The notes below the pieces were generated by a model. It did not search any database. It was not told the DNA's origin and saw nothing but the letters and a program-made list of their open reading frames with translations. Both the position numbers and the translations under genes were made by a program. A DNA stretch of 64,000 nt from a virus: IMG/VR virus record IMGVR_UViG_3300036790_000468, positions 1 to 64,000 of that record; one strand, written 5' to 3'. Shown piece after piece: positions 8,254 to 64,000 of this stretch (position 1 is the first letter of the stretch; the number at the start of each line of letters is the position of its first letter).

Positions 8254-8270
8254 GCCGTGAGGGTAGCGCA

Positions 8271-8326
8271 CACCTTTGCCCCTGTCCCAGGTTCTCGCCA
8301 GAAAAACCCGAGTCAGGGCAAAGGTG
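8271..8326. other. Putative intact attP for the serine integrase
   Basis: 56-bp imperfect palindrome with perfect 11-bp outer arms CACCTTTGCCC/GGGCAAAGGTG immediately upstream of int. Confidence 0.65.
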
Positions 8327-36002: not shown

Positions 36003-36397
36003 GACGCACCACCAGCGGCGGCAAGGCGCGCGATCCGCTGGTACTTCTCGGGAGTGGTGTGGCCATCCCAGATGGTGGAGTCGTCGCGTTCGACGTGCTC
36101 GAACAGGCTCAGGTCGTTCTCGCCGACGTGCCACGAGCACTGGCCGGTGGGGAGCTCGACGTAGACGACGACCCAGCCGGGCTCGCTGGCGTCGCCGTAG
36201 TTCCAGGTCGACGGGTAGAGCGCGGCGAGCAGCGCGACGAGGTGGGCGCGCTCGCGGTAGGCGCCGTTCGTGGCGTTGATCTGCTGGCCGAGCTCGTCAT
36301 AGGCGGTCTCCCACTCCCCGTACCAGTATTCGATCTGCTGGTCGGGGGTCTTGATGTCGTGGGGTTCGAGGGCGAGTCGGTCGGCGTGGTCGGTCAC
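35999..36397 (-). CDS. WDGH-motif phage protein
   Basis: LPTGQCSWH...WDGHTTPEKYQRI. Confidence 0.7.
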   Translation of the reverse strand: MTDHADRLALEPHDIKTPDQQIEYWYGEWETAYDELGQQINATNGAYRERAHLVALLAALYPSTWNYGDASEPGWVVVYVELPTGQCSWHVGENDLSLFEHVERDDSTIWDGHTTPEKYQRIARLAAAGGAS

Positions 36398-47926: not shown

Positions 47927-48223
47927 CTATTTCCTACGGCCGTGAGTGCGCGGATGCTTGGGCCGTCCGTAGAGGCCGAGCGCGTGCTGCTTGATCAGGC
48001 TTCGGATGTCCTCGGCGGAGAACCAGAGGGTCCGCGCGATCGGAGTGCGGTCGATGTTGCCGAGGGCGGCCTGGCGCTTGAGCCAGTACACGGTCGGACG
48101 CACATCGTCCGCGATGTCCGGGCCGAACATGATCTGCCGCACTTCCTGCGGGGAGTACAGGCGCATCGGCTGCTCGGCGAGCAGTTCCTCAACGGCATCG
48201 ACGACGGCCGGGCCGGTGCTCAT
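47927..48223 (-). CDS. Excisionase-like HTH protein
   Basis: LYSPQEV...WLKRQA...LWFSAEDI. Confidence 0.65.
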   Translation of the reverse strand: MSTGPAVVDAVEELLAEQPMRLYSPQEVRQIMFGPDIADDVRPTVYWLKRQAALGNIDRTPIARTLWFSAEDIRSLIKQHALGLYGRPKHPRTHGRRK

Positions 48224-48555
48224 GCGGGGACCAGCGCCGTGTCGGCGGCGCAGTTGCAGTCGGCGATCTCGATGCGCTCGCCGTTCTCGTCGAATACGTC
48301 GAGGATCTCCGCGGCCGCGTTCCACGAGCCCTGCGAGGCGACGAGGGCGGTGATCACCTGGAGGTTCACCGGGAGGCGGCCGTTGACCATCTTGTTGAGC
48401 GTCCCGGGGGTCGTGTGCAGGTACCGGGCGATCGCGGAGATGTTGGGACGCCCGTTTGCGCGCTTGCGCAGCAGCCGGGGGTTGCGGGAGGCGACGATCA
48501 CCATGGCGTCGGGCTTGAAACAGGCGCGCGGTCCCGGGAGGTGCTCGTTCGGCAT
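48220..48555 (-). CDS. Cro-like HTH protein
   Basis: NISAIARYLHTTPGTLNKMVNG; promoter TTGCAC-N18-TACTGT at 48601-48630. Confidence 0.7.
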   Translation of the reverse strand: MPNEHLPGPRACFKPDAMVIVASRNPRLLRKRANGRPNISAIARYLHTTPGTLNKMVNGRLPVNLQVITALVASQGSWNAAAEILDVFDENGERIEIADCNCAADTALVPA

Positions 48556-48837
48556 GGAGGCTCCTGGATTCAGCGACAGAAAGAATTGCCGTCGCGAACG
48601 ACAGTAGTCCTGTCCTTCAGGAAAGTGCAAGACCTCAGTGTCGCGAGCGTGTCACGGCGCGCGAAGTGAGAGAGGGGAGTGTGCATCGTTGCACGCCACC
48701 AGCGGCGATGCCGTTCGGACATGCTCGAGGCCTGAGGCCGTTTGCCGACAGGACGTCCGGGGAGGCAACCAGTGCCAGTCATGGTGCGGATAGGATTTGT
48801 TCCTGACAGAACAACCCTCGGCGCTGGAAGGCGACCC

Positions 48838-49332
48838 GTGGCAAGTGACGCACAACCGCAGGAACCGGTGGACTGGGCCACGTGGCTACGCACCGCCCTG
48901 AACACCGCCGGCATGACCGCCGCCGACCTCTCGCGCACCGGCGTCGTCAAGTCCGAGTCGACCATCTCGAAGTGGCTGCGCGGCCCAGGCACCCCCGATG
49001 ACGCCGACACCGTGATCGCGGTCGCGCACGCGGTCGGCCAGCCCAACGCCATTGCCGCCTTGGAGGCCTCCGGGCGGCTCGCCCTGGCCGATGCGATCCG
49101 CAGCCAGATCCGCCAGGCGTACGAGGACGAGGCGCTGGTGAAGATCCGCACAAGCCCCGGCCTCGGAGAGCGTGAGCGCAAGTCGATCGCCGAGAACTAC
49201 CAGCGCCGGCGCGCGGACGCGGTGCGCATGATGGAGTACGAGATCGCCGAGGCGATGGCCAAAACGCGCCGCGGCCAGGACGGGCGCATCTCCCTAGCGA
49301 CCGACGACCTCGAGGACGCTGCCGAGGCGTAG
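48838..49332 (+). CDS. Immunity repressor (XRE HTH)
   Basis: WLRTALNTAGMTAADLSRTGVVKSESTISKWLRG. Confidence 0.8.
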   Translation: MASDAQPQEPVDWATWLRTALNTAGMTAADLSRTGVVKSESTISKWLRGPGTPDDADTVIAVAHAVGQPNAIAALEASGRLALADAIRSQIRQAYEDEALVKIRTSPGLGERERKSIAENYQRRRADAVRMMEYEIAEAMAKTRRGQDGRISLATDDLEDAAEA

Positions 49333-49496
49333 CGGCACTGATGTGCGGAATCATCACTCTTTCCAGTGAAAACGCCACCGTCCGGCACAGGGTCGTCCTA
49401 ATGTAAATAGCCTCAGAGGCCCGGGGCTCGGGCGGCGCAAGCCGCACGCCCGCGAGGCCGAGCGGTACGGAGGATACGGCGGTCAGGAGTCGCGAC

Positions 49497-50180
49497 ATGA
49501 TGTCAGCGGGAGAGTGTTCACCTAAGGTGAAAGCGACCAGCATCCTGGTGCGTGCAAGCCTCACGGTAGCCGTGCTCTCCTGGAGCGCGGCAACGGCACT
49601 GATCTGCCTGGATGCGGTGGGCAACGGGTATCTCGGCGTTTCGGTCGGGATTGTGACCACATGGCTGATGGGCGTCGGCGCCCTGTTCCTGATCCTGCCG
49701 ATGGCCTCTGGCGGCGACCAAAGGATCAATACGCTGATCTCCGAGGGGCTTCCCCTCGGCGACCCCGCACTCGACACCCTCCTCGTCGGAGGCACCCCGC
49801 GCCGTTGGCGCGCGATCCCCTGGGTGGGGACCGCCCTGACCGCCCTCGCCACCACAGCATGGACAGTAAGCCTGATCTACTCGATCCAGCTCGGCCTCGG
49901 CGTCTACCACCTTCCCCCCGACATCAGCCTCGGAGTACTGCGTCTGCTGATGGCCACCGCCGTCTGGCCCACCGTCGGACGCGTCGCCGGCACCGCCGAC
50001 GCCCGCCAGCGCGCCGTCTACGAGGTCGCCTGCGACGCCCACCACGCACTGCGCGGAAACCTCGCAGCCTGCGAACGCGACGTGGCCGCCTCCCTGCGCG
50101 TCCTTGAAGGCGGGGGCGCGCGCAGCCCGTGGCGCTCCCCCCGAAACGGTGGAAACGGTCGCGTGGCTCCCGGAGCATAA
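49497..50180 (+). CDS. Multi-pass membrane protein (possible superinfection exclusion)
   Basis: About 4 TM segments; lies between repressor and integrase. Confidence 0.65.
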   Translation: MMSAGECSPKVKATSILVRASLTVAVLSWSAATALICLDAVGNGYLGVSVGIVTTWLMGVGALFLILPMASGGDQRINTLISEGLPLGDPALDTLLVGGTPRRWRAIPWVGTALTALATTAWTVSLIYSIQLGLGVYHLPPDISLGVLRLLMATAVWPTVGRVAGTADARQRAVYEVACDAHHALRGNLAACERDVAASLRVLEGGGARSPWRSPRNGGNGRVAPGA

Positions 50181-50185
50181 GGAGC

Positions 50186-51562
50186 ATGGGATACGCAGAG
50201 CGCTCCGGGAAGTTCGAGAACGGCAAGCCGAAGTACCGCGCGCGCTGGCAGTTGCCCGAGCGCACCGAGAAGGGGCGCCGCAAGGAGGGGCACGAGGACG
50301 GCTTCACCGACCCGGACTCCGCCCGGCAGTACGCGAACGACCAGGAAGCGCTGATCCGCGCAGGGCTGTACTTCGACCCGAGCGCCGGGAAGATAAGCCT
50401 CGCCGAGTACTTCGACCTGTGGCTCCCGATCCAAAAGGTCAAGCCAGGAACGAAACTCACCTACCGGCAGTACTTCAACCGGGAGATCAAACCCGCGTGG
50501 GGCGGCACACCCCTGGTGGAGATCAAGACCATGCGCCTCATGCAGTGGCTCGGCGCACTCAACGACCCGCAATCCCCGCGCAGACTGTCCAAATCGGCGA
50601 TCAACCTCGTCGAAACCATCCTCAACGGCATGTTCGCGCTCGCCGTCTACGAGGACCGCATCCGCAAGTCCCCGATCCCGCCTCCCTCGGCCGGCGGCCG
50701 AGGGGGCGACGGCTACAAGCCGGTGCGTGAGGGGCAGATCTTCACCCGCGACGAGTTCGCAGCCCTCCTGGCGAACCTCGCCACCTGGCACGACGTCGTG
50801 TTCTGCATCACCATGCTCTTCCTCGGCACCCGCGTCTCGGAGACCGCGGCTGTGTGCCGCAGCAAACTGAAACTGCAGGTGCCCAGGTTCCCCGGCGAAC
50901 TGTTCGAAGGCACGTATCTGCTAGATCCACTGACCGGCCAGCTCGCCAAGGACGAGTACTACGTCCTCGACTTCGCCTCACCGAAGTCAGGCCCCGGGCG
51001 CCTGCTGGACCTGCCACCCTTCCACGTCGCCCTGCTCGCCGACTGGATCGGGCGCATTCCGAAAGATCGCGACCGGCTCTTCGCCGCGCCGATGGGCGGC
51101 ATGCTGCGCGTGAACGAATGGAACGCCCACGTCTTCCGCCCGGCCTGCGACGGACGTGAGGCGTACGCCAGTCCGCACGGGCGCAACTTCCACCCGGCCA
51201 TCGCGCCTGCCTGCCCGGGTAGAGTCACCCACGACTTCAAGCACACCGCAAAATCGATCATGGCCGACGCTCGCGTGAACGAGATCATGCAGAACTACTC
51301 GCTCGGGCACCGCGAGCAGGGATCCTCGGCCCCCTACAAGCACCCCACGCCCAAGATGCGCCAGGAGCGGCTCGACGCCCTCCAGGGGATCTGGGAGGAG
51401 TGGGCCATCGAGCTCACGGAGCTCCCCGCGTGGCACGCCAAGGACGGCCCCGGCACGCGCCGCTCGGAGCTCCCGGCGCCCCGGTTCGCGGACCCCGCCA
51501 CCGTGCTTCAGTCCGTGTCGACTCCGGTTCTACTCCAAGTCGATCAGCCGACGCTTTTCTAG
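50186..51562 (+). CDS. Tyrosine integrase
   Basis: YRARW arm domain, GTRVSE, PKSG, HDFKH, LGH and YKH. Confidence 0.93.
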   Translation: MGYAERSGKFENGKPKYRARWQLPERTEKGRRKEGHEDGFTDPDSARQYANDQEALIRAGLYFDPSAGKISLAEYFDLWLPIQKVKPGTKLTYRQYFNREIKPAWGGTPLVEIKTMRLMQWLGALNDPQSPRRLSKSAINLVETILNGMFALAVYEDRIRKSPIPPPSAGGRGGDGYKPVREGQIFTRDEFAALLANLATWHDVVFCITMLFLGTRVSETAAVCRSKLKLQVPRFPGELFEGTYLLDPLTGQLAKDEYYVLDFASPKSGPGRLLDLPPFHVALLADWIGRIPKDRDRLFAAPMGGMLRVNEWNAHVFRPACDGREAYASPHGRNFHPAIAPACPGRVTHDFKHTAKSIMADARVNEIMQNYSLGHREQGSSAPYKHPTPKMRQERLDALQGIWEEWAIELTELPAWHAKDGPGTRRSELPAPRFADPATVLQSVSTPVLLQVDQPTLF

Positions 51563-51840
51563 CGTCCGGACGATGGCAAAGTGGCACGTTGTACCTATCA
51601 ATGCCATACCGTGGTGTCTCGCTCAAAGTGGAACGACTACTTCACGAGGGCGGCGATGCCCGCGCTGCGGGTGGCCGACTTCAACATGTCCTCGGTGTCT
51701 CAGGCGAGCTGACCCGGTCTCGGCCTGCGGGGGAGGCTGTGCCGCTTCCTGTTCGATCGGTGCGCTCCGGTTCGTTAGCGTGCGTTCGCGTGCGTCCCGG
51801 GGCGTCCGCGCGCCATGATCCACTCCAAAATCACTCCAGA
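51510..51840. other. Putative intact attP of the tyrosine integrase
   Basis: ACTCC arm-type repeats with 11-bp period on both sides (51521/51532 and 51822/51833) flanking a host-gene fragment. Confidence 0.65.
51629..51712 (+). pseudogene. 3' fragment of a host TldE/PmbA-like gene (att replacement sequence)
   Basis: Translates WNDYFTRAAMPALRVADFNMSSVSQAS*, which matches the actinobacterial TldE-type C-terminus as recalled. Confidence 0.75.
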
Positions 51841-52049
51841 TCTTGGCCGAATCACGGGGCTGCGACCTGCGGGAAATCGCGACGCGGACGGACGCCCGCT
51901 CCGGCGCATCCGAGGTCGGTGATCTTCGACGAGGGGGCGGCGAGCGCCGTGCCTCCACCCCTGCTGCGCCCGTTGCCCGATGCGCCACCGATCTCGACCA
52001 CGGCGGCGTATCCTCCCCGTGTACCGGCCGTCACAGGTAGGAGGGGACG

Positions 52050-52505
52050 ATGACCGGAGGGGACGGCATAGTCATCGGCGCCGTGGCCACGTTCGTGGCG
52101 ATGCGCTACGTGATGGGGGTCAGGGCTCATCGCCGCCGCCAAGAGCGTCTGCGCCGGGCCCGAGCCGAAGGGCGCGGGCTCCTCGCGGCCCAGGCCTCCG
52201 CGGCGGCGAGCCGGTCGCCAGCGCTCGCCGTGGACCTGCAGCGCCCGCAGCCTCATCCACCGACCGACGCGGTGCCCCCCGAGTATCTGTTGGCCCAGGC
52301 AGCGAAGCTCGTGGTCCAGACGCAGTACGGGTCGGTGAGGCTGCTCGAGCGCAGGCTGCGCCTGGACCGGTCCGAGGCCGAGTCCTTGATGGGCAAGCTC
52401 GAGTCGCGCGGGATCGTCGGGCCCGGCGAGGGGCGTGCGGCGCGCGACGTGCTGGTGCCGCCGGACGGATGGGAGGAGCTGTGCGGTGCCTTGGAGCAGT
52501 CCTAG
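52050..52505 (+). CDS. TM-anchored stand-alone FtsK gamma (winged-helix) domain protein
   Basis: LLAQAAKLVVQTQYGSVRLLERRLRL...LESRGIVGPGEGRAARDVL. Confidence 0.85.
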   Translation: MTGGDGIVIGAVATFVAMRYVMGVRAHRRRQERLRRARAEGRGLLAAQASAAASRSPALAVDLQRPQPHPPTDAVPPEYLLAQAAKLVVQTQYGSVRLLERRLRLDRSEAESLMGKLESRGIVGPGEGRAARDVLVPPDGWEELCGALEQS

Positions 52506-53065
52506 ACCGCGCCGCACTCCGCAGCCATGCGTGAAATCGCGGCCTCGACCTCGTCCCACGGGTAGATCGGGACCCCCGTGCGCCCGTCCGGGCCCGGGAT
52601 CCGCGTCGAGGGGTGGCCGAAGCCGCCCGTGAACCTCACACCGGCGCCGCGCAGGGTAGCGATGCTCGCTGCGGCGGCCGGGTGCTGGGCGAGGGGGGCG
52701 TTGACCCAGGGCACCGCCGTGATCGGCACGCCGGAGCCGAGCCCTTCGTTGATCAAGCCCATGGCGAGGGTGTCGGAGATCCCGGCCGACCACTTGTTCA
52801 AACTATTGAACGTCAGCGGGCTGACAAGGAATGCGTCGGCGGCTGGAAGCGCCTCGGTCTCCTCCGGGCGCCGGTAGTCCGATCTGACCGGGAATCCCGT
52901 GGCTGCCTCGACCTGCGCCACCTCGCCGATGAACCGCACCGCCATCGGGGTCGGCACGACGCACACCGCGCTGAAGCCGGCCGCCGTGGCCATCGAGACG
53001 GCGCGCGGCGCCTCTCCCGCGGCGCGCGCTCCGCATACCACGACGTACAAGCACCGCTCCGCCAC
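52502..53065 (-). CDS. HFCD-family flavoprotein
   Basis: LYVVVCG, SPLTFNSLNKWSAGISDT and VPWVN. Confidence 0.88.
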   Translation of the reverse strand: MAERCLYVVVCGARAAGEAPRAVSMATAAGFSAVCVVPTPMAVRFIGEVAQVEAATGFPVRSDYRRPEETEALPAADAFLVSPLTFNSLNKWSAGISDTLAMGLINEGLGSGVPITAVPWVNAPLAQHPAAAASIATLRGAGVRFTGGFGHPSTRIPGPDGRTGVPIYPWDEVEAAISRMAAECGAV

Positions 53066-53129
53066 AATTCCTCCGAGAGCCGGGTCCGTTTGGACGCTCG
53101 GCGTGACACTATCCCGGTAGAGACCTCGA

Positions 53130-54350
53130 GTGCGAAAGCTGATGTCGATGCCTGAGATCCTGTTTCAGGAGACGCCCGGCGACCGGGTCAAGATGCTGCG
53201 CAAACGCGCCGGGCTGACGCAGCAGGAGCTCGCGCTGCAGGTGGACCGCACCCAGGGGTGGGTATCCCAGGTCGAGCGCAGCAAATTCGATCTCGATCAG
53301 GTCTCCATCGTCAACTCGCTCGCGCGCGCGCTTCACGCCCACCCCCGCGAGATCCTCGGCGAGCCCGGCGTCGAGGACGGCGGGCACCGCGGACTCGAAT
53401 CGGCCAACGAGCTCCTGCGCCGATTGCGCCGGTTGGATCTGCCCCCGAACACCGACCTGCATCGGCCGCTCCCCGAGGTGGAGAAGGACTCGCACAAGGT
53501 CGCTGCTCTGCGCGGGGCCGCGGAATACACCGCGATGGGGTCACCGACCGTGGCCCTCTTCGAGGACCTGCACGCCGCGTGCGCCGATCCGTCGCCGAAA
53601 ACGCGCGAGCAGGCGTTCAGGCTTCTGACCTTCGCCTGCAAGGAGGCGCACTCCTTCGGGTACGGGCTGAACCATCCGCACCTGGTCGAGGTGGCAACGC
53701 TGCGGGCACGCTGGTGCGCGCAGCAGTCGGACGACCCGCTGCTCTCGGCGCTCGCCGACTACATGGCAGCGCGCGACGCGTGGACGACAGCGGACTGGGA
53801 GGATGCGAACCTGCTCGTCGACCGGGCCTTGTACACGGTGGAGTCATCGGACGCGGGGCGCGCCGCACGCGCGTCGATGGCCGGCGCGCTGCACCTACGC
53901 GCCGCGATCACCGCTGCGCGCACCGGTAACGGCGACGAGGCCTACGCCCGGCTCGACGCCGCGGCCGACGCCGCGCACGAACTCGACAACCAGGCCGACC
54001 CGTACCTCAACTGCTTCTCGACAGGCAACGTGCAGATCCACCGAGTCGCGGTCGCCGTCGAGCTCGGCGACGGCGCCGAGGCGGTGCGCGCATCGAGAGG
54101 CCTGGTCATCCCGAAGGATCTGCCGCGTTCGCGCGCCGCGCACCACTTCCTCGACACCGCGCGCGGCTGGGTGTGGGTAGGGGAGACGGAGCGCGGCCTG
54201 GCAGCGCTCGAGCGCGCGGACCGTCTCGCACCTCAGTTCGTGCGCAATCACCCGATGGCCAGGGCCACCGTGCGTTCGCTGCTGCGGGCAGAGAAGCGCT
54301 CCACTCGTGAGCGGCTGCGGAGCATGGCGACGCGCGTGGGTGTCGCCTGA
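53130..54350 (+). CDS. XRE HTH regulator with a TPR-like C-terminal domain
   Basis: RKRAGLTQQELA..WVSQVER; GALHL, NVQIHRVAVAVELG and APQFVR. Confidence 0.88.
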   Translation: MRKLMSMPEILFQETPGDRVKMLRKRAGLTQQELALQVDRTQGWVSQVERSKFDLDQVSIVNSLARALHAHPREILGEPGVEDGGHRGLESANELLRRLRRLDLPPNTDLHRPLPEVEKDSHKVAALRGAAEYTAMGSPTVALFEDLHAACADPSPKTREQAFRLLTFACKEAHSFGYGLNHPHLVEVATLRARWCAQQSDDPLLSALADYMAARDAWTTADWEDANLLVDRALYTVESSDAGRAARASMAGALHLRAAITAARTGNGDEAYARLDAAADAAHELDNQADPYLNCFSTGNVQIHRVAVAVELGDGAEAVRASRGLVIPKDLPRSRAAHHFLDTARGWVWVGETERGLAALERADRLAPQFVRNHPMARATVRSLLRAEKRSTRERLRSMATRVGVA

Positions 54351-54369
54351 TCAGAGGAATCTGACTCCG

Positions 54370-54386
54370 TATTAGCCCGGCTAATA
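54370..54386. promoter_or_regulatory. Palindrome TATTAGCC-C-GGCTAATA, candidate operator
   Basis: AT-rich 8-bp arms upstream of the HATPase/STAS operon. Confidence 0.5.
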
Positions 54387-54444
54387 TTTCGCGCCTCCTG
54401 CGGTTCTACGGTGCCAACAGCACCTGCCGAAGGAGGCGCGCTCC

Positions 54445-54861
54445 ATGGCACTACCCGCCGAACGCCGCACACTGAAGTCGAGCGACGACGCCGCCGCGCT
54501 TGCGCAGTGGGCCGTCCACGCCGCTCAATCCCTCGACCCCGCGCTGCCGGCCCAGGCCGTGCGCGATGTCGGAGCCGTGGTGCACGCCCTGGTCGAGAAC
54601 GCGCAGCGCCACGGCACGCCGCCGATCACTGTCGAGGTGGCGGTCGCCAGCGTTCTCGTCGTCGAGGTGAGCGACCACGGCCCGGGGGCCCCGGTGATGC
54701 GCCCAGACCGAACCGGGGCCCTCGCCACCGTCGTCGATGTCCTCGCCATCCAGTGGGATGTGCTCGAGTTCGAGGGCGGCAAGACCGTATTCGCCGCCGT
54801 CGCGATCCCGGAACTCTCCTCAGCCCTTCCTGCCGCACGCACACCGCGGAGCCACCCGTGA
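54445..54861 (+). CDS. HATPase_c anti-sigma-like protein (degenerate)
   Basis: ALVENAQRHG, VSDHGPG and GGKTVFA. Confidence 0.75.
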   Translation: MALPAERRTLKSSDDAAALAQWAVHAAQSLDPALPAQAVRDVGAVVHALVENAQRHGTPPITVEVAVASVLVVEVSDHGPGAPVMRPDRTGALATVVDVLAIQWDVLEFEGGKTVFAAVAIPELSSALPAARTPRSHP

Positions 54862-55235
54862 GCGAATACACCAACCTGAACAACCGATACCTCGAGCCCG
54901 TCTGGATCGAAGGGGAGTGGGCCTGCGTCCACGCCCCCGGCGCCCTCGACTACCTGACCCAGGAGCGCGCCCGTTCCTACCTGATCGCCGCGGCGGCCAC
55001 GTCGCCGACGGGCAACCTCGCCGTCTACCTCGGCAACACCGCCTTCTGCGACTCGGCGGGCCTCGGGCTCCTTATCGGCGCGCGCAAACGCGCAGCAGCG
55101 CGCGGCGCCCGGGTCGCTCTCGTCGCGACGCCGCCCCTCCTGCTGGAGCGGCTGGCGCTCACGGGACTCAAGGATTGCTTCGAGCTGGTGCAGAGCATCG
55201 CCGAACTCACCGACGCGTCATCGAGGAGCTCCTGA
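54858..55235 (+). CDS. STAS-domain anti-sigma factor antagonist
   Basis: GALDY, FCDSAGLGLL and LALTGL. Confidence 0.85.
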   Translation: MSEYTNLNNRYLEPVWIEGEWACVHAPGALDYLTQERARSYLIAAAATSPTGNLAVYLGNTAFCDSAGLGLLIGARKRAAARGARVALVATPPLLLERLALTGLKDCFELVQSIAELTDASSRSS

Positions 55236-55624
55236 TGGCGTTCGACGTTACCGGCGCCTCTCGCGGCGCCGCATCCGAGGGCCGAGGCCGGCCCGATGTC
55301 GCTGCGCCGTTGACGGCCCCCGAGCTCGCCCAGGCGCTGCGCGAGGCCGCTATGGTGGCGCACGGCGACCGGCGCCACGATCTCCTCACCGTGCTGAACG
55401 TCTTGGCAAGCGACCATCGCCCCGACCTGCGCGAACTACCCACGCTCTGGCAGATCACGGACGCCGTCCGAGCCGTCTCGCTCTCGCCTGGCGCCCCGTA
55501 TGCAGGGTCTGCGAACGCCGCGCAGCGCTGGTGCTGGCAGCACGGGAAGAGTCTCGCTGACCTTCTCCTGGAGGCAGCGGTGCGGATCGAAGGCGGCGCA
55601 ACTGGCCGTGAGGGCGCCGGATGA
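55235..55624 (+). CDS. Hypothetical protein
   Basis: TGATG coupling to the upstream gene. Confidence 0.5.
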   Translation: MAFDVTGASRGAASEGRGRPDVAAPLTAPELAQALREAAMVAHGDRRHDLLTVLNVLASDHRPDLRELPTLWQITDAVRAVSLSPGAPYAGSANAAQRWCWQHGKSLADLLLEAAVRIEGGATGREGAG

Positions 55625-55639
55625 ACGGGCGCCTCGCGG

Positions 55640-55894
55640 TCAGTCCCGTTGTCGCCGGCGCGCGAGGCGGTTGGCGGTCATCACGTTCATCGGCACCTGC
55701 TTGGCGACCGCCCGCTCGGATTCCCCCGTCTGCTCACGCTGCGCTCGGATGGCTGCGCCGATCGAGTCCCTGACTTTCGGGAGCGCGTCGAGCAATTCGC
55801 GCTCCAGTGCGAGCCCCGCGCGCGCTCTCTGCAGGGGATCGGGAATCGCCGCGACCTGCTCGATCCACGACGCGAGTTCAGATTCCCGGGACAC
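55640..55894 (-). CDS. Small HTH protein, divergent from the transfer operon
   Basis: SERAVAKQVPMNVMTANRLA; dyad TAACA-N4-TGTTA near 55934-55948. Confidence 0.6.
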   Translation of the reverse strand: MSRESELASWIEQVAAIPDPLQRARAGLALERELLDALPKVRDSIGAAIRAQREQTGESERAVAKQVPMNVMTANRLARRRQRD

Positions 55895-55973
55895 AAGAAA
55901 AGAGATTAGCGCCGCAGAGCGCCGATCCGTGCATAACACCCCTGTTACACTGCGCCGCTCGAAGGAGGACACC

Positions 55974-56867
55974 ATGGCCACACCATCCAGCACCACCCCG
56001 CAGCGCGTCCTCGCCGTGGCGCGCATCGGCGGCGGCCTGTCCCTGGTCGCCGCCGCCATGATCAGCTTCGAGGGCCTCAACGGCCTCGGCGCCCTGATCG
56101 GCATCCACCCCTCGTGGCTGCTCCCGCTCGCGATCGACATCTACGCCGTCACCTGCGCCGTGGTCGCGCTGAACCTCCCCGCGGGGCACGCCGTGCGCGG
56201 GAGCGCCGTGGGCAACGCGGCACTCGGCCTGCTGATGTCGATGGGCGGCAACTCCACCTACCGCGGCATGACCCACGGCTGGTCCGGTCACAACATCATC
56301 CTGATGGTCGCGGACGCGTGCCCCAGCCTGATCGTCGAGAGACTGATCCACCTCGTCGGCGTCCTCGCGCGCGGCGCCGCGACCACCGAGACACGCGACG
56401 AGGCCGAGGCAGCCGCGCCCGCGCCAGTCCAGGCGCGCCGCGCCCAGCACACGCCTGTCGCTACCGCGCCGCGCCACGCCGCCAACGCCCAGCCGCTACC
56501 GGGCCCGGCGCCGCAACCGACCGCTACCGCTACCACCGCGCCCCCGACTGCTACCGAGCCCGCGCCCACCGCGCCGCCGCCCACCCCCACTACCGCGCCC
56601 GCGACCACCACCGCGCCCACCGCGCCCGGCCGAACGACCTTGAGCACCCCGACCGCGCGCCAGCAGAAGATCCGCAACCTGATCCTCGAGCGCGGCCGCG
56701 AGAACGTCGACGGCGCCATGGTCGGCGAAGCCCTCGGCGTGCACCGCTCCAACGGCCGCCTCGCCCTCAAGAAGTTCCTCGAAGACCTCGACGCGGGCCT
56801 CGTCTCGCTCAACGCGTCGTCGTCGTTGTCGTCGTCACCCGCAGTCGTCCCCGCGGCAACGCCGTGA
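55974..56867 (+). CDS. DUF2637/Spd-like membrane protein with C-terminal HTH
   Basis: ISFEGL..L, WLLPLAID and SMGGN TM motifs; GAMVGEALGVHRSNGR. Confidence 0.75.
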   Translation: MATPSSTTPQRVLAVARIGGGLSLVAAAMISFEGLNGLGALIGIHPSWLLPLAIDIYAVTCAVVALNLPAGHAVRGSAVGNAALGLLMSMGGNSTYRGMTHGWSGHNIILMVADACPSLIVERLIHLVGVLARGAATTETRDEAEAAAPAPVQARRAQHTPVATAPRHAANAQPLPGPAPQPTATATTAPPTATEPAPTAPPPTPTTAPATTTAPTAPGRTTLSTPTARQQKIRNLILERGRENVDGAMVGEALGVHRSNGRLALKKFLEDLDAGLVSLNASSSLSSSPAVVPAATP

Positions 56868-56937
56868 CCGGCCAGAACCCAGGCGACGACACCCGGCGAC
56901 GACAACGACGACGCACGACGACAAGGACGACGACGAC

Positions 56938-58365
56938 ATGAGCAGCGACACCACCGGAGCCGCGGCCCCCGAACCGAAACCGGGCCGGGGCCCCCGGCAC
57001 CGCACCACCCGGCACGTTCTGGTGCACGGCACCGGAGCCACCGGGGTCTCTGCGCTGGCCGCCGCCGGCCACGCCTTCGGCCCGGCCGGGATAGCCGCAG
57101 CCGCCGGAGGCGGCGTGCTCATAGCCTGCGGCGGATACGCGCTGCGCCGGACCTCGAAGTCCCGCGGCCGCAGCCAGCGTCCGGCCCCGCGCCACCGCGT
57201 GCGCCGCCCGCAGACCGCGACCGGCGCACGCACCTCGGCGGGACTGCGTCGCGACCCGGGCGCGACCCCGCGACGCCCCGGCACCTCCGCGACCGGGGCG
57301 TCGCGGGGTCGCGCCGTACCGGCCGCGACCGGGTCACGTCGCGTCGCGGGACTGCGTCGCGCACAAGCCCCGTCGCGCACCGACGCGACGAAGGGCGGCC
57401 GGCGGGTTGCGACCACCGTTCGGCGACCGCGACCGATCTCGACCGCGCCCCGCGCCGCCGGTTCCTCGCGACGCGGCAAGAGCGCGACCGCCACGCGACC
57501 CGGTCGCGCCGGCGGAACCGGGCCCGTCTCGACGCGCCGGGCCCGGGAGGCCGCGACGCGCACCCGCGTCCGCCGCGTCGCAAAGCGCCCCGCGCCGCGC
57601 ATTCCCGCGCCTCCAACCGGAGCGCCGCGCGCTACCGCGGGCCGCCGCCCGACGCGACCCCTGGCCAGCACGCCACGCGGGCGCCGCGCTGCCCGGCGGC
57701 TGCGCCGGCGCGCCGCCCGCGCCTGGCGCTTCACCTCGGCTGGCGCCAAGGCCTCGCGCCCATACCTGCGACTTCGCCCGCCCGCCCAACACGGCAAGCC
57801 GCGGCTGAAAGCGGCCGCACGCCGCCAGCCGGCGCCGGGCGCCAAGAAGCCCCCGGCGAACAAAGATACGAACACCCCGCGCGCGAACAAGGCCCCGGCC
57901 AGCGCCACCGGCAGCCAGAAGGCAGCCAGAGTCCCTGCGCCGCGCCGCCCTGCAGCCAAGCCCGGGCGCCCCATCACACCCCCCGGCCGAGAGAAGGCAA
58001 CCGTGTCCGAAGCTGATATTTCGCCCGGCGGCATCACCGCCATCATCGACTCGATCCACCAGCACCTCGACGGCTTCGAACCCGACTCCGCGCTGGCGAT
58101 CCTCGGATTCCTCTCCGGGTTCGAGTCGCTCTACACCGAGCTCGGCGGCGCGCTGCTGCGCCTCGGCGACCGCCTGGGCAGCGACTACCCGATCGACCGC
58201 TCCGTCGTCGAGCACCTCCACGACATGGGCGCACACACCCTCACCCTCGGCGCGTGGGGCGCCCAGACACACCACCTGGCCCGCGCTGCCCACGAGACCG
58301 AAATCCAGCGCATCGAGCAGCCCCGCCCGCGCGAAGGCATGTGGGACGTGGACCGCTACAACTAG
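56938..58365 (+). CDS. TraA-like AICE/plasmid transfer accessory protein
   Basis: TM N-terminus, Arg-rich linker, C-terminal HETEIQRIEQPR..EGMWDV directly before TraB. Confidence 0.6.
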   Translation: MSSDTTGAAAPEPKPGRGPRHRTTRHVLVHGTGATGVSALAAAGHAFGPAGIAAAAGGGVLIACGGYALRRTSKSRGRSQRPAPRHRVRRPQTATGARTSAGLRRDPGATPRRPGTSATGASRGRAVPAATGSRRVAGLRRAQAPSRTDATKGGRRVATTVRRPRPISTAPRAAGSSRRGKSATATRPGRAGGTGPVSTRRAREAATRTRVRRVAKRPAPRIPAPPTGAPRATAGRRPTRPLASTPRGRRAARRLRRRAARAWRFTSAGAKASRPYLRLRPPAQHGKPRLKAAARRQPAPGAKKPPANKDTNTPRANKAPASATGSQKAARVPAPRRPAAKPGRPITPPGREKATVSEADISPGGITAIIDSIHQHLDGFEPDSALAILGFLSGFESLYTELGGALLRLGDRLGSDYPIDRSVVEHLHDMGAHTLTLGAWGAQTHHLARAAHETEIQRIEQPRPREGMWDVDRYN

Positions 58366-58427
58366 CCACCCGAGCCGGCCGGGCGCGTCAGAGTGCGCGC
58401 GGCCCCAATCTTCGAAGGGATGGGCGG

Positions 58428-60422
58428 ATGACCCAGAAGGAAAGCTGGCTCGAGGTCGAGTGGCGCCACCACGACCTCTCGACCCCGGCCCTGACCGCAG
58501 TGAGCCTCTACGCGCTCGAGGCCGCCGCGAGCCTCGTGCTCCACGATGGCCAGGTCGACGGCATCGCGGCGATCGGGGCGCTGGCTACCGCGAGCGTGGT
58601 CTGGACGCGCTCGTGCGCCTTCTGGATGGCGGTCTACCTCACCGCCGCCACGCTCGTGACCCTTGCCTGGATCCTCTACGCGGAGCACGCCAGCCCGTTC
58701 ACCGCCCGCGCCCTGACGTTCGCGGCCGGCGCGGCCGTCGGGCTCGGCGTGCTCTACCAGGGTGCCGTGCGCGCCGAACGCGCGGAGAGGCAGGAGACGG
58801 ACCGGCGCCTGGCTGCGCGTGCTGAGGCCGGGGAGTGGCCCAGCGTCTTCGCCGCCCTCGGCATCCCCGGCGTGGAACTCGTCGAGGAGAGCGAGTTCCG
58901 TGCCGGGCGCACCGCGACGCTGCGCCTGCCCGCCCACGGCCGCGCCACCTTCACCAGGGTCGCAGCCCTGGCCGAGCGGCTCGAGACGGTCCTGGACCTG
59001 CCCGGCGGGTCGGTGAAGTTCCGGCAGGGGGAGACGGCACGCGGGTTCCATGTGGACATCCACACCCGCGATGTCCTGGCCGAGGACCTCCCCTTCGAGT
59101 TCGAGACCAGCCCAACGAGCATCAGCGAGCCCTTCGACATCGGCCGCGACGTGTTCGGCGAAGACATCATGGTCCTGATTCGCGAGATCCGCGCCGCGAT
59201 CTTCGCGCCGCCCGGATCCGGCAAATCCAACCTGCTCAACGTCCTGATCGCCCGGCTGCTGCGGTGTGTCGACGTCGTGATCTGGGCCATCGACTTCAAG
59301 GGCGGCCGCATGATCAAACCCTGGCTGCAGCCCTGGTTCGAGGGCGTCACCGACCGGCCAGTGATCGACTGGGTCGCCACCACCCCCCGCGAAGCCCAGC
59401 TGCTGCTCCAGGGGCTCAAGGACGTGATCGAGCATCGATCCGGCCGCGGCGTCGGCGAGAAGATCACCCCCAGCGCGCGACAGCCCGCGATCATCCTGAT
59501 CTCGGACGAAGGGTCCTCTGTCGTCGGGCTGGACGCCGTTGCCGGGCGCGCCCTGGCAACCCTCGTGAAGGACATCATCGCCCTGGGCCGATCCGAAGCC
59601 GTCGACGCGATCCTCTGCTTCCTTCGCGCGAGCGTACCCATGACCGGCACCAGCGACCTCAAGGCGCTCTCCAAGCTGCGCATCACCCTCGGCGCCACCA
59701 GCGCGGCCGACGCGACCGCCGCCACCGACAACCCCGGCATGGGCGGCGAGGTCACAGCGTTCGAACACCCGGGCACGATGCTGGTGCAGAAAGGGCGCAA
59801 GAACGTGCGGATCGGCAAGTCCCTGCGCATGGAGGATCCCGACGTGCCCTACGTCGCAAGGATTTACTCCGACCGGCGCCCGGCCCTCGAACCCGACGCC
59901 GAGCAGGCTCTGGGAGCGGTCTACGCCGAACGCTGGAGCCTGGCGCGCTGCGGGCACCTCCTGCCGTTCGAGCGGCAGCAGGAGCTCGGATTCGATCCGA
60001 AGACGGCCGCGGCCGCCGTCGCGCAGGAGGCCGCCGCGCACCCCGCAGCGCCGGCCGCCCCGCTGACGCTGCCAACGATCCCGCCGCCGCCGGCGAACGC
60101 ACGCCCCGCCTACAAGACCGTGCAGGGCGAGCCGATACCGCGCGCGCTCGACGACCAAGCGGTCGAGGACCTTTTCGCCGGCCTGCGCGGCCAGGTCGAC
60201 GAGGCTCTGAGTTCCGTGCGCATCGGGCCAGAGCGGATGCTCGCGCTCGTGCGTGCGGCCGGCCGAGAGGGGATCTCCCCGAAGTCCTTGACCGAGCAGC
60301 TCAACGCGGAGGACATCGGCGTCGGGCGCCAAGCCGTGCACGACTGGCTCACCGAGGCAATCAAAGACGGACTGATCATCCGGCGACTGCGCGGCGAGTA
60401 CGTGGCGGCCGAGTATGCCTGA
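58428..60422 (+). CDS. FtsK/SpoIIIE-family conjugative DNA translocase (TraB-like)
   Basis: N-terminal TMs, PGSGKS Walker A, IDFKGG, ISDE, GRSEAV and a C-terminal wHTH. Confidence 0.88.
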   Translation: MTQKESWLEVEWRHHDLSTPALTAVSLYALEAAASLVLHDGQVDGIAAIGALATASVVWTRSCAFWMAVYLTAATLVTLAWILYAEHASPFTARALTFAAGAAVGLGVLYQGAVRAERAERQETDRRLAARAEAGEWPSVFAALGIPGVELVEESEFRAGRTATLRLPAHGRATFTRVAALAERLETVLDLPGGSVKFRQGETARGFHVDIHTRDVLAEDLPFEFETSPTSISEPFDIGRDVFGEDIMVLIREIRAAIFAPPGSGKSNLLNVLIARLLRCVDVVIWAIDFKGGRMIKPWLQPWFEGVTDRPVIDWVATTPREAQLLLQGLKDVIEHRSGRGVGEKITPSARQPAIILISDEGSSVVGLDAVAGRALATLVKDIIALGRSEAVDAILCFLRASVPMTGTSDLKALSKLRITLGATSAADATAATDNPGMGGEVTAFEHPGTMLVQKGRKNVRIGKSLRMEDPDVPYVARIYSDRRPALEPDAEQALGAVYAERWSLARCGHLLPFERQQELGFDPKTAAAAVAQEAAAHPAAPAAPLTLPTIPPPPANARPAYKTVQGEPIPRALDDQAVEDLFAGLRGQVDEALSSVRIGPERMLALVRAAGREGISPKSLTEQLNAEDIGVGRQAVHDWLTEAIKDGLIIRRLRGEYVAAEYA

Positions 60423-60600
60423 GATCTCCTACGCCGCGGCCGCGCGTGTTGGGCTGCTGCTGCGGGCCGTCCAGGCCGGCGACAGGGCATTGGTGGCTGA
60501 GATGCTGCTCTCCATCCCCGAGGCCGAGGTCGGGGCGGTCGAGGCCCGGCTGCGCAGATTCGGCGCCGACCCCGCGATACTGCTCGCTCCCACTACGTAG
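60415..60600 (+). CDS. Small hypothetical protein
   Basis: Overlaps the traB stop. Confidence 0.45.
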   Translation: MPEISYAAAARVGLLLRAVQAGDRALVAEMLLSIPEAEVGAVEARLRRFGADPAILLAPTT

Positions 60601-60793
60601 TGTCCGCGCGAGAGTGCTACCGTAGAGCCTTGCTCCCCGGCTTGCCGGGGATGAACCCGGAGCGGTTGTTGCTTCCCGCTCTCTCCCCGCCTCGCGCGGG
60701 GATGGCATACGACTTCGAGCCCCTGCCGAGGACCATCCGGCAGGGGCTTCGTCGTGAGCGGTGACGAAGGCGTAGCCCAGGCACGACGAAAGC

Positions 60794-60817
60794 GGCCCCA
60801 CCCCGAAGGGTGGGGCC
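60794..60817. terminator. Intrinsic terminator hairpin between convergent operons
   Basis: GGCCCCACCC-CGAA-GGGTGGGGCC. Confidence 0.75.
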
Positions 60818-60833
60818 ATCGCTCTGCCGGGGC

Positions 60834-61643
60834 TCAGTGCCGACGACGTCGCCCTCCGCGCCGCGACCGCCCGGGGCGCCGCCACCGCCGGCCACCAGTC
60901 GGCAGCGCCCGATGATCGCGTGCGGGCACGAGCGTCGCCAGCGCCACGGAGACCAGTGGCAACGACGGCGCCGGGTGCAGCGGCGCGTCCGCTCCGCTCG
61001 CTCCCCCCGTCGGCGTGCCGCTCGCACCCGAGGGCGACGCGCTCGCCACCGGGGTGCACGCGTAGTTCGGCGCCGGCTGCTGGGTGTCGAGCGGGCACGT
61101 GTAGACGTTGCCCTGCGGATCGGTCAGCGAGAACCCGGCCGGCGGTGAACCCGGCGCGCCGCTCGGGCCGGGCGCTCCCTGCTGGCCCGCCGGTCCCTGC
61201 GCGCCTTCGGCCCCGGCCGCGCCGGGTTCGCCGGGGGATCCCGGTGCGCCCGGTGATCCTGCGGCGCCCGGGCTCCCCGGCGGTCCCGCCGGGCCGCTCG
61301 GCCCGCTCACGCCGGGGCCGCCGATGGCGCCGGGCGAACCGGCCACGCCGCTCGCGCCCACCGCACCCGGAGCGCCAGCGGCTCCGGCCGGCCCGGCCGG
61401 TCCGGCCGCGCCCTGGATGATCTGCGCCGGCGCCGGGGGAACCGGGGTCACCCCGTGCGCGCGCAGCTGCGCCTCAGCCGTCGTCAGATTCTCGGCCAGC
61501 GCATCGATCGCCCTGCCCTGCGTGTCGATCGCGGCGTGCTGGGAGGCGAGCGTCGAGATCACCCAGACTCCGAGGGCGGCCGCGAGCACCGCTGCGAGCG
61601 CCACCCACCACTTGCGCAGCACCACGCCGGCATGTCGCATCAC
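60834..61643 (-). CDS. Collagen-like membrane-anchored protein of the lysis cassette
   Basis: TM, coiled coil, Gly-X-Y run, C-terminal YTC...YAC. Confidence 0.85.
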
Positions 61644-61645
61644 GA

Positions 61646-62092
61646 TCAGTGGCCTCCCTGGCCGAGCAGCGCGATGAGCACCGCGGCGATGGTGCCGATC
61701 GCGATCACGGCCGCGATGATGTTCGCGGTGCGGCTGCTGCCGTTGCTCTCCTCGGACCGCGAGCGCTCGCGCTCAGCGGCGAGCTTCCCGTCGAACTCCG
61801 CGACGATGGCGTCCAGGCGCCGCAGGAACTCCTGGCGCATGCTCGCGAGCGCAGCCTCGAGCTCCGCGTTCTTCGCGATCAGCGCGCTCTTGCGCTCCAG
61901 GCTCGTGGACTCGACCTGCGCGAAACGCGCGAGCATATCGGCTTTGAGATCGGCCACGACCGCGGCCAGGGCGCGGTGCTGGGCGTCCCACAGCTCGCTC
62001 GGCACCATCGAGCGGGCCAGCTCCATCAGGCGCATCTCGTGCCGGTCGAGCGTCCTGCGGATCTCTCCGGCGCCCATCTCCTCCTCAGCCAC
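61646..62092 (-). CDS. Lysis-cassette membrane protein (holin-like)
   Basis: GEIRRTLDR, coiled coil, C-terminal TM. Confidence 0.65.
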
Positions 62093-62140
62093 GTGCGATC
62101 TCCGGTCTCTCGGCCGAGGGCGACGGCAGACGATCTCAGG

Positions 62141-63133
62141 TCAGGGGTGGATCTTGAGCTTCGCGCTCGTGCGCGGCCCGACGATCCCGTCGACCAGCAG
62201 CCGCGACTCGCGCTGGAACGCTGAGACCTCCTGCGCGGTGAGCGGACCGGCCACCGAGTCGGTGCCCCCGGCACCGAGGTGCTCGGCCGCGAGGGCCCGC
62301 TGGACCACCAGGGTCCGGGCGACCAGCGCGCCCCACGTGTGCTCGCCGACGATCCCGTCGACCAGGAGCGCCGCCGCCTTCTGATACGCCTTGACGGCAG
62401 CGAGGGTGTCGGGCCCGAACCGGGCGTCGACGCCCTTCGGATCCTGCCCGCCGAGCATCAGCGAGCGCTGCAGCACCTCCACCCAGTACCCGGACTCCCC
62501 GAAGGACACCGTCGGCCGGCCCGCCGCGGCCGCCGACGGCGCGGGGGCCGGGGGCGACGGCATCCACAGCCCCGCGGTGGAGGCGGCCTCGTCCAGGTCG
62601 ACGTCGACCCCGCCGAGAGTCGTGCCGTTGAGCACCTGCCGGATGGTGTACGCCGGCGCCCACTGACCCGAGGACCAGGCGTAGGTCTGCCACAGGTAGT
62701 CGTAGCCCGCGGCGTGCGCCGCCTCGATCACCTCGTAGTCGCCGTACACCCCGACCAGAGCCTTGGAGCCCTCGGCGTCCGAGGCTCCGTGCAGGTAGTC
62801 GAGCACCGACCCGATCTGGCCCGTCGTCGCATCCAGGTCGACCGCGAAGTAGATCGGCAGGCCGGCCGGGAACCCGAGGGCGCTGGCCTGGGCGCGCGCG
62901 GTCCCCGCCTCCGCCAGGCCCTGGGCGTACCCGGCGAGCGGGGAGACACCGGTGGTCTCCCACACCAGCCCGATCCCGATCCCGACGGCGTGCAGGCCGT
63001 CGCGCTCCGAAGTGGTCAGGTTCTTGCTCGGGTCGGCGCTCACGTAGCGCATCGCGTAGGCGATTCCCGCGGCCTTGAGAGCGGCGGTGGACGGAAGGTC
63101 GAAGGCGTAGTCGACGCCGCGAACAGTGGTCAT
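62141..63133 (-). CDS. Endolysin: DUF1906 (Rv2525c-like) glycoside hydrolase + PG_binding_1 repeats
   Basis: GVDYA, RYVS, VWET, PIYFAVD and WQTYAWS; VDGIVG repeats. Confidence 0.92.
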   Translation of the reverse strand: MTTVRGVDYAFDLPSTAALKAAGIAYAMRYVSADPSKNLTTSERDGLHAVGIGIGLVWETTGVSPLAGYAQGLAEAGTARAQASALGFPAGLPIYFAVDLDATTGQIGSVLDYLHGASDAEGSKALVGVYGDYEVIEAAHAAGYDYLWQTYAWSSGQWAPAYTIRQVLNGTTLGGVDVDLDEAASTAGLWMPSPPAPAPSAAAAGRPTVSFGESGYWVEVLQRSLMLGGQDPKGVDARFGPDTLAAVKAYQKAAALLVDGIVGEHTWGALVARTLVVQRALAAEHLGAGGTDSVAGPLTAQEVSAFQRESRLLVDGIVGPRTSAKLKIHP

Positions 63134-63622
63134 CTAGCTCTCCGGGGGATTGGTGGTGTCAGCGGACTGTGCCTTTGCGATCTCGGCGCGGGCCTTCGCA
63201 GCGACCTGGTCTACGTCCACGGCGAGCCGTTCGGCGACCGCCGCGATCACGGCGTCCTGGACGGCGAGGTGGATGGCAGCTTCGTGCTGGCCGTGCAGGA
63301 TCGCCTCGGTGTCGGCGAAGGCCTGGATGTTGCGCCGCTCGGCCGCCCGGCCGAGGACCACGGCGCCGACCATCAAGAGCGGAAGACTCCACAGCTGGAT
63401 CCAGTTGGACCAGTACAGGAGCGTGGCCTGCTCCGTCGTGAACACGGCGCCCAGCGCACCGTAGATCACGAATACGTAGGTGCACCACATCGTGCCGAAC
63501 ACGATCGTCGCCCGCGCCGCTACCCGGTCGTTGACCGAGACGCGCGTCTGCGCGAGGGTGACAGGGCCCTGAGCCGTGCGCCTCTCGACGTGCGGGTGCG
63601 GCGCGTGCTTGTAGAGGGTCAC
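63134..63622 (-). CDS. DUF1003-like membrane protein
   Basis: NDRVA..T..FGTMW and [12 protein letters not shown]. Confidence 0.7.
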
Positions 63623-64000
63623 TTCGCCGCCGCCCTCAGCATATGCGTGTGGATCACATCGACGCGGGCGCGCGCCTCGGCGGCGACGTGCGCGTCGCGG
63701 ATGACGGTGAGCTGGTTGTCCTGCAGCGACTCGCCGCTCCGCGACCAGTTCGTCGACCCGGTCACCACGTCCAGGCCGTCGACGATCACCAGTTTCATGT
63801 GCATGATCGCGCCGCGCTCGCTACGGCCGGTGGCGATCGAGTTGCCCGGGAAGGAGGACTTCGCCAGGAGCGCGCGCTCGTGAACGCCCCCGGCCTGCGA
63901 GGAGTCGAGGGTGAGCTGCACGAAGCAGTTCTCCGCGTCGAGCTGCTCGTGCAGCGCGGCCGCGAGCTCCTCGTCGTCGAACCCGTACATCGCGACCACC
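63619..64000 (-). CDS. Phospholipase D-like (single HKD) protein, 5'-truncated
   Basis: [10 protein letters not shown]...TGSTNWS...QDN. Confidence 0.85.

Follow-up and report, generated by a model that had tools for sequence, protein, structure and literature searches.

A cassette of genes at 55.6-60.6 kb in the virus record IMGVR_UViG_3300036790_000468 is, judged from its sequence relationships, a transfer unit of plasmid type that has become fixed in a lineage of temperate phages. The window analysed in our study comprises the first 64 kb (64,000 nucleotides) of this single 127,504-bp record (G000, that is, the window together with loci L001-L004), with a G+C content of about 70%. The lysis genes (61.6-63.6 kb) lie on one side of the cassette and a tyrosine integrase gene (50.1-51.6 kb) on the other, and the cassette would represent a plasmid-derived, TraB-type cassette for translocation of double-stranded DNA (dsDNA), carried in the lysogeny arm of a temperate actinophage. 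Its core is formed by a 664-aa FtsK/TraB-like ATPase and a 475-aa partner protein. A preliminary description of the same DNA had recognised a TraB-type conjugation module in a phage genome; the homology of both proteins to the transfer (tra) loci of pADI95-16c and pZL12 agrees with this, but a clt-like site beside the ATPase gene was not found. Virion-independent movement of phage dsDNA between or within hyphae is the most likely function of the cassette, at about even chances, and we infer every functional step, the recognised DNA site included. The partner domain and the chromosomal copies of the gene pair are the least expected results of the analysis.

Genes of the cassette and their plasmid relatives

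Open reading frames (ORFs) were picked by third-position G+C content (GC3 filter) and a frame plot, with gene calls resting also on relatives, and the chosen ORFs were scanned against Pfam, PHROGs and NCBIfam; as the set was GC3-filtered, misses are possible. The ATPase gene occupies 58428-60422 on the plus strand (the start follows the called protein P0001), and profile and fold evidence together assign its product as FtsK/TraB-like, though two curated models, Pfam FtsK_SpoIIIE and NCBIfam plasmid_TraB, do not pass. The family phrog_31069, 'FtsK/SpoIIIE-like', matches the protein with an expectation value (E) of 2.6e-43 (149.5 bits) and also matches its homologues in loci L005, L006, L007, L008 and L014. 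A check with FtsK_SpoIIIE had been proposed beforehand; this model alone gives E 0.11 and 12.3 bits, whereas the A1 family profile matches FtsK structures at E 2.3e-10, and the GSGKS motif at residues 263-267 is invariant in the A1 alignment of 33 homologues. The plasmid ATPases reach 18.7 (pADI95-16c), 17.5 (pFQ12) and 25.8 bits (pSQ10) with the same Pfam model, and pZL12.71c gives no match; since these proteins also fail or barely pass, the Pfam miss is no evidence against membership. PF01580 is carried by 21 of the 69 ATPase homologues found. The identity of the ATPase to those of pFQ12, pSQ10, pADI95-16c and pZL12.71c is 26-31%.

The AlphaFold2 (AF2) model of the ATPase (predicted local distance difference test, pLDDT, 85) contains four N-terminal helices (11-134), a beta domain, the P-loop motor, C-terminal helices (576-646) and a hairpin (650-660), and the hydropathy analysis places hydrophobic segments at 20-38, 62-85 and 91-114. 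The top Foldseek ranks for this model are the conjugation coupling protein TcpA and the FtsK motor (E about 1e-15, target template-modelling score 0.60-0.70; 6.6e-15 for the FtsK motor). Thus an FtsK/SpoIIIE-type P-loop motor and a predicted N-terminal membrane anchor, both features of TraB, are found in the protein, and in prediction its architecture matches that of TraB. Complex prediction with ATPase residues 140-664 and the partner domain gave a score of 0.00. Elsewhere in the same arm, an FtsK gamma winged-helix domain (E 2.9e-12) takes up most of a 151-aa protein (52050-52505, plus strand), and homologues of this protein lie 0.6-1.4 kb past the TraB-like gene in two viral loci (L016:10161-10376 and L026:12281-12493). 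No sequence likeness was seen between it and the ATPase family (hhalign 0.2%).

The partner gene (56938-58365, plus strand) encodes a membrane-anchored protein with one N-terminal hydrophobic helix, an Arg/Pro/Ala-rich middle part and a conserved C-terminal four-helix domain (about residues 364-473). It had been described beforehand as TraA-like; the gene is real, being 40% identical to its L005 counterpart over residues 10-473, but no relation to a named TraA was shown. The profile comparison is decisive for its homology to the plasmid genes upstream of tra ATPases. By hhalign, the partner profile A2 aligns with residues 477-569 of the 580-residue product of the pADI95-16c gene directly upstream of the ATPase (97.1%, E 6e-11) and with residues 521-602 of the 766 of pZL12.72c (97.1%, E 5.9e-11), with the shared motif H..E/D.I.R...PR.GEE.W. 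Weaker blastp matches were found at the same C-terminal end in pSQ10 and pFQ12, together with a weak 20-residue match to Spocter gp98; by tblastn (E<=0.01), the full partner protein matched none of the 50,697 phage records and none of the 72,556 plasmid records. The ATPase stop is overlapped by a 61-aa ORF (60415-60600, plus strand), which is kept in L005 (72%) and L006 (46%); pADI95-16c and pSQ10 likewise have an ORF of 55-61 aa after the ATPase, the likeness to the pADI95-16c ORF being seen by eye only (blastp E 2.2). The partner, the ATPase and the small ORF therefore form a unit of the plasmid transfer-locus type.

Beyond the plasmids, the partner domain (tblastn with residues 356-475) was found in 38 of 70 related loci, i.e. 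in 12 of the 41 viral and 26 of the 29 genome loci, mostly just upstream of the ATPase gene and on its strand; L010 and L013 are exceptions, having the domain about 3.5 kb away from the ATPase on the opposite strand. It ends a protein of 320-670 aa in the viral loci, the partner of the genome loci is in most cases short (a stop-to-stop frame of 116-206 aa in 24 of the 26), and a library-wide profile search recovered 803 representative proteins at E<=1e-3 in the same two size classes. Pfam has no model for the domain, which is predicted as a four-helix structure (AF2, pLDDT 88), and Foldseek gave no fold match in the PDB (best E 0.45). The domain connects plasmid transfer loci, phages and chromosomal gene pairs, has no match in Pfam or among solved structures, and offers a way into the accessory proteins of TraB-type transfer, which are poorly understood.

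The first plus-strand gene of the cassette lies in a long ORF (55500-56867) whose first 150 or so codons are not coding-like in the frame plot, and because of this the real gene start is placed at 55971, giving a protein of 298 aa (55971-56867). It is recognised as a four-helix membrane protein with N-terminal helices, the hydrophobic segments covering residues 13-43, 47-75 and 109-127; a linker rich in Pro, Thr and Ala follows, and the C-terminal part is helix-turn-helix (HTH)-like. The preliminary description had named it DUF2637/Spd-like. The Pfam DUF2637 model (PF10935) does not match the window protein at E<=5, but it passes its cutoff with the positional counterparts in L005 (3.9e-10, 40.3 bits) and L006 (1.4e-19, 71 bits), and falls below it with that of L007 (9.5e-4, 19.5 bits). 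In its C-terminal part the window protein resembles the counterpart in L005, at 38% over 47 aa and with E 1e-7 against a small database, and its nearest named clusters in the Atlas are DUF2637 (0.88, 183 shared features; a lead only). We read the 298-aa protein, from these comparisons, as a divergent member of the DUF2637 family. A small divergent ORF of at most 111 aa lies at 55640-55975 on the minus strand; only its last 90 or so codons, at about 55640-55900, look like coding sequence. Of the HTH gene claimed here beforehand, the coding stretch stands, but an HTH regulator is a lead only, given by the Atlas clusters nearest to the ORF (HTH_23-type, 0.91; recognition 2083, below 2300); no family was matched in Pfam (E<=5) or PADLOC, and no homologue was found in the 70 related loci.

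Residence in a temperate phage

The cassette is stably resident in a temperate phage lineage, with no assembly join. In the sequencing run X1, which may be the source sample, 48000-63721 is covered without a single difference by one Logan contig (22,092 bp, depth 43.9). Its own coordinates put the start of this contig at about 41.63 kb, and the next contig (depth 46.8) carries on from 63694. Two other soil studies contain exact pieces of 151-235 bp from the cassette and its flanks at low depth, among them 57579-57888 (in two), 60032-60182, 60498-60648 and 60700-60850. A second viral record, G001 (locus L005; 59,613 bp, 78% complete), is collinear, with tail genes, cassette and integrase in the same order, and past the integrase it continues into early genes matching window 44.4-46.7 kb. 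The protein identities between the two are 53% for TerL, 47% for the 1260-aa tail protein, 40% for the partner, 55% for the ATPase, 72% for the 61-aa ORF and 30% for the tyrosine integrase, and a DUF2637 gene precedes the partner in G001. The preliminary description had asked for synteny of lysin, traB and attP in other phage genomes; G001 agrees with this in its order of tail genes, cassette and integrase. In L014, the endolysin, a peptidase, a phospholipase D (PLD) homologue (58%), the partner domain and the ATPase all run in one direction, and in L006 the ATPase is followed by a tyrosine integrase. Within 10 kb of the cassette, an integrase was recognised in two and an endolysin in one of the five viral loci annotated. 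The phage is from soil and its host belongs to the filamentous high-GC bacteria. A DNA search with 55400-60700 gave no match in the 50,697 phage records, and a search of viral and genome contigs for related loci with the ATPase protein alone confirmed none; the A1 alignment was needed.

The record as a whole looks composite. It is linear according to IMG/VR and 100% complete by the CheckV estimate, and it holds two full structural gene sets, set A at 12-35 kb (TerL at 33378-34640, portal, capsid and tape measure) and set B at 61-87 kb (TerL at 85437-86981, portal, capsid, and tail proteins of 1457 and 1260 aa), besides a serine integrase gene at 6826-8271. A 759-bp exact repeat occurs at 36009 and 122563, and the record ends lie in a 12-bp tandem repeat, the first 126 bases being repeated at 127372. 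One possibility is that the record is a cointegrate; another is that a single path was drawn through two phages of about 41 and 86 kb by way of a repeat that they share. These features would favour a mis-join of the cassette to phage DNA, and an assembly join at about 55.6 or 60.7 kb had been named beforehand as a finding contrary to the conjugation reading. However, the cassette is at a great distance from either copy of the repeat (36.0 and 122.6 kb), the Logan contig runs through it without a difference (though the run may be the source), the exact pieces at 60498-60648 and 60700-60850 come from another study and the synteny is kept in G001, so that an assembly artefact is scarcely credible. 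A protein with a Tad2-like anti-Thoeris domain (E 2.6e-20) is encoded upstream of the packaging genes of set B, at L002:12457-13080 on the minus strand (G000 90457-91080).

A second alternative is that the 10.5-kb plus-strand block at 50.1-60.6 kb represents a separate element, similar to the AICEs (elements of actinomycetes that are both integrative and conjugative), inserted beside the phage lysis genes. Its size, its single orientation and the position of the integrase at one end and of the transfer genes at the other are as expected for such an element. On the other hand, the same block occurs on the same backbone in G001 at 30-72% protein identity, the collinearity extends past the integrase into the early genes, the contig depth is even across the block (about 44-47) and no Rep family was detected in the block with Pfam, PHROGs or NCBIfam. 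Att direct repeats bounding an element of 9-24 kb, by which AICEs are recognised, were not found either; the best direct repeats flanking the cassette are 24-54 nt long at 62-88% identity, and att repeats of its own had also been considered beforehand as evidence against the conjugation reading. A separate element is hence highly improbable. The absence of Rep, Int and Xis from the module, claimed in the preliminary description, was confirmed for 55.6-60.6 kb with the three libraries, apart from the label of phrog_733, 'excisionase', which matches the 298-aa membrane protein at 4.2e-7. The module had further been placed between the lysis cassette and attP/integrase; the endolysin and the integrase are where this requires, but the position of attP was not located. 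The tRNA scan of the window found none.

The tyrosine integrase gene (50129-51562, plus strand; phrog_1 at 1.3e-35, Phage_int_SAM_3) lies at the far end of the plus-strand arm of the cassette. Between them, at 54445-55235 on the plus strand, an ORF with a histidine-kinase-like ATPase domain (HATPase_c E 2.8e-4, below cutoff) is followed by one with a STAS anti-sigma-antagonist domain (E 6e-11), which together look like a phage-borne partner-switching pair. At the other end, two convergent GC-rich hairpins, at 60717-60750 (-37.3 kcal/mol, z -7.3) and 60793-60815 (-30.6 kcal/mol, z -4.2), form the end of the plus-strand cassette and of the convergent minus-strand late operon. Directly 3' of the cassette, at 60630-60709, a repeat-spacer-repeat resembling type I-E CRISPR was read from the sequence, and Rfam gave no match over 49-62 kb at E<=1. 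On the minus strand beyond the hairpins, a collagen-like fibre gene, the endolysin region and a PLD-type nuclease are encoded. The lysis cassette (61646-63622) consists of the endolysin (62141-63133; Rv2525c-like glycoside hydrolase domain and PG_binding_1, endolysin PHROGs) flanked by two small proteins with hydrophobic segments. The PLD/NucT-like nuclease gene inside the lysis region (63619 to G000 64149, minus strand; PLDc_2 5.9e-12, PADLOC DrmC-like 9e-11) is 58% identical to L014:5601-6110, which sits between the L014 endolysin and the cassette.

Proposed function and alternatives

In the proposed mechanism, the motor would be held in the membrane by its N-terminal helices and would bind phage DNA via the C-terminal helix-plus-hairpin domain. 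Excision by the phage integrase and replication from the phage origin would provide the phage genome as a dsDNA circle, and the motor, with the two membrane proteins, may pump this circle into a neighbouring hypha or across septa within the mycelium, giving the phage a virion-independent route of spread. A wider form of this proposal is tentative and rather doubtful: integrating, temperate phages of one lineage on mycelial actinomycetes would use two routes, virions and a plasmid-derived dsDNA pump of three to four genes passing the excised circle to hyphae nearby, and the partner domain would be the conserved adaptor of the pump in plasmids, phages and domesticated chromosomal copies. If the cassette does move the phage genome between hyphae, lysogeny could pass through a colony or into a neighbour with no need of lysis, receptors or virions, and the view of host range, superinfection and prophage spread in filamentous bacteria would be changed.

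Several results weigh against transfer as the function, and the first group concerns the site of recognition and the classification of the motor. Beside or 3' of the ATPase gene, no clt-like array was found. The heptamer CGCGACC occurs 11 times in the partner gene (out of 141 in the record) and each of the two phages has about three times as many in its cassette as expected (17 for 5.8, and 23 for 6.7), but this may be codon bias, the region coding for Ala-Thr and Arg-rich repeats. The TraB-like nature of the translocase, asserted beforehand, agrees with phrog_31069, the A1 profile and Foldseek, but the NCBIfam model plasmid_TraB (NF041214) gives only 34.7 bits against a cutoff of 800. Further, two phage papers call FtsK-like proteins common in actinophages, and because they are said to occur in many actinophages their role in phages need not be conjugation.

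The second group of contrary results comes from the family tree. From the 70 related loci (41 viral and 29 genome), a quick maximum-likelihood tree of the ATPases with 62 rows was made, leaving out 15 loci (10 viral and 5 genome) with a matched stretch below 330 residues or a frame below 420 aa; it is effectively unrooted because the intended FtsK outgroup, P0058, is nearly identical to the viral locus L016. In this effectively unrooted tree the window ATPase groups with L005, L006 and L007 (support 100), and the sister clade of this group holds, with L008 and L009, 13 viral rows and 22 chromosomal ones. In another clade lie pZL12.71c, Spocter gp99 and the ATPases of the three plasmids. The chromosomal copies, of which 22 are nested in the phage-side clade, come from metagenome-assembled genomes of Streptosporangiaceae and other Actinomycetota. 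Housekeeping neighbours (Ppx/GppA, Rho, GGDEF-EAL, subtilase and sugar enzymes) were found in all six chromosomal loci annotated (92 ORFs), and no integrase, phage or Rep family was found near the ATPase in any of them. The closest non-viral relatives hence look non-mobile, which is the strongest point against a simple reading as conjugation. In the genome contigs L046-L072, the partner domain is followed by the FtsK-like ATPase in 26 of the 29 genome loci. An integrase profile built from only three sequences recovered two of its three training loci among the 70 and none of the 29 genome loci, and is too insensitive to count.

The housekeeping neighbours in all six chromosomal loci argue for a cellular role of the pair, and with them for a host-directed or lysogenic-conversion function of the cassette, which might keep out phage or plasmid DNA entering the cell, or take part in segregating the host chromosome at septa or spores. 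The position in the lysis-integrase arm, opposite in direction to the late genes and beside regulators and the anti-sigma-type pair, would suit such a function, and in L014 superinfection-exclusion PHROGs lie a few kb from its copy of the cassette. However, no PADLOC defence family was matched save for a 45-residue P-loop match, and the whole unit, partner included, is homologous to loci of plasmids whose transfer is reported as demonstrated. We regard this alternative as somewhat unlikely.

The motor could also serve the lytic cycle, in which it would move, resolve or distribute replicating phage DNA in the mycelium without transfer to other cells. FtsK-like genes are present in isolated Streptomyces phages (11 records match the ATPase, e.g. 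Spocter gp99), and one phage paper suggests a use 'during replication'. But the early and late genes are on the other strand, the cassette is a neighbour of the integrase and closes with a hairpin of its own that is convergent with the late operon, and membrane helices are predicted in the motor, all of which make a lytic role improbable.

For transfer by the cassette, two sequence features were considered as candidate clt sites and given up. Leaving aside the terminal tandem repeat, the strongest word cluster of the record consists of 13 exact copies of GGACCCTGA, in both orientations, at 41606-41854 (with one mismatch allowed, 32 matches against 20.6 expected). It lies inside a 380-aa ORF (41097-42239, minus strand; no Pfam hit), between two non-repetitive parts of the protein, and for this reason was taken as an origin and dropped as clt. 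Initiator genes with their iterons inside them are known, lambda O being an example. In G001, an array of a different motif (CGGGGGTC, 9 copies) is found at the same relative position, and by analogy the 41606-41854 array is probably the phage origin, with iterons inside the initiator gene. The other candidate, a perfect 23-nt inverted repeat at 57259-57315 inside the partner gene and within the CGCGACC cluster (-63 kcal/mol, z -6.5), is without conservation in L005, L006 and L007.

Comparison with known transfer systems

The transfer loci of the actinomycete plasmids pADI95-16c, pSQ10 and pFQ12 have the same gene order as the cassette: first a protein (about 520-580 aa) with the partner domain at its end, next the ATPase (about 730 aa) and, in two of the three, the ORF of 55-61 aa. 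As in the phage, the plasmid transfer ATPases combine membrane helices with an FtsK-like motor. In the TraB of pSVH1, according to PMC3583192, a C-terminal winged helix binds repeated 8-bp motifs. In comparison to the small actinomycete plasmids, the phage has no Rep gene or plasmid backbone, and no clt was found in it.

The AICEs pSAM2, SLP1 and pMEA300 likewise contain an integrase, an FtsK-like transfer gene and small membrane proteins, as described in PMC2440964. In the present case, no Rep was found at 50.1-60.6 kb with Pfam, PHROGs and NCBIfam, no tRNA att repeats were found, and the cassette belongs to a complete phage.

The FtsK-like translocases of actinophages (Streptomyces phages Spocter, Hiyaa, Keanu and Galactica, PIS 136 and P1312) are 27-32% identical to the window ATPase over 36-50% of the query. 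In Spocter, as in L005, a DUF3307 membrane protein adjoins the FtsK-like gene. Beside a TraB-like gene this protein was observed in G001 (L005:9571-9975), as Spocter gp100 (L084:4653-5138) and in pADI95-16c (L081:884-1306), and not in the window. The actinophage records differ from the cassette in the partner, which has no tblastn match among them save the weak one to Spocter gp98 already mentioned. Homologues of SpdB2 are reported on phages phiC31 and VWB, and phage homologues of SpdB2 have been proposed to help the spread of phage DNA.

The plasmid-phage pZL12, phage FtsK-like genes and phage Spd-like genes are already known. The literature searched on TraB/FtsK-like genes, actinophages, pZL12, phage-plasmids and DUF2637 gave no description of an integrating phage with such a cassette. 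Among the closest comparisons is pZL12, or phage ZL12 of Streptomyces (GQ919031.1), which likewise has phage structural genes and an FtsK-like transfer ATPase on one replicon and, going by PMC3583192, is a precedent of a phage that also conjugates. Its ATPase, pZL12.71c, is homologous to that of the window (26% identity, E 4e-21 in a small database; tblastn E 5e-12), and pZL12.72c, directly upstream, shares the partner domain, but the two ATPases belong to different clades. Among the ORFs scanned, no ParA/ParB or RepA families of pZL12-type maintenance were found, which in the GC3-filtered set may be a miss. pZL12 itself is a plasmid prophage of 90 kb; in the present phage, a tyrosine integrase adjoins the cassette arm. 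If the cassette moves the phage genome between hyphae, the boundary between phages and conjugative elements would be blurred beyond this single plasmid-phage case.

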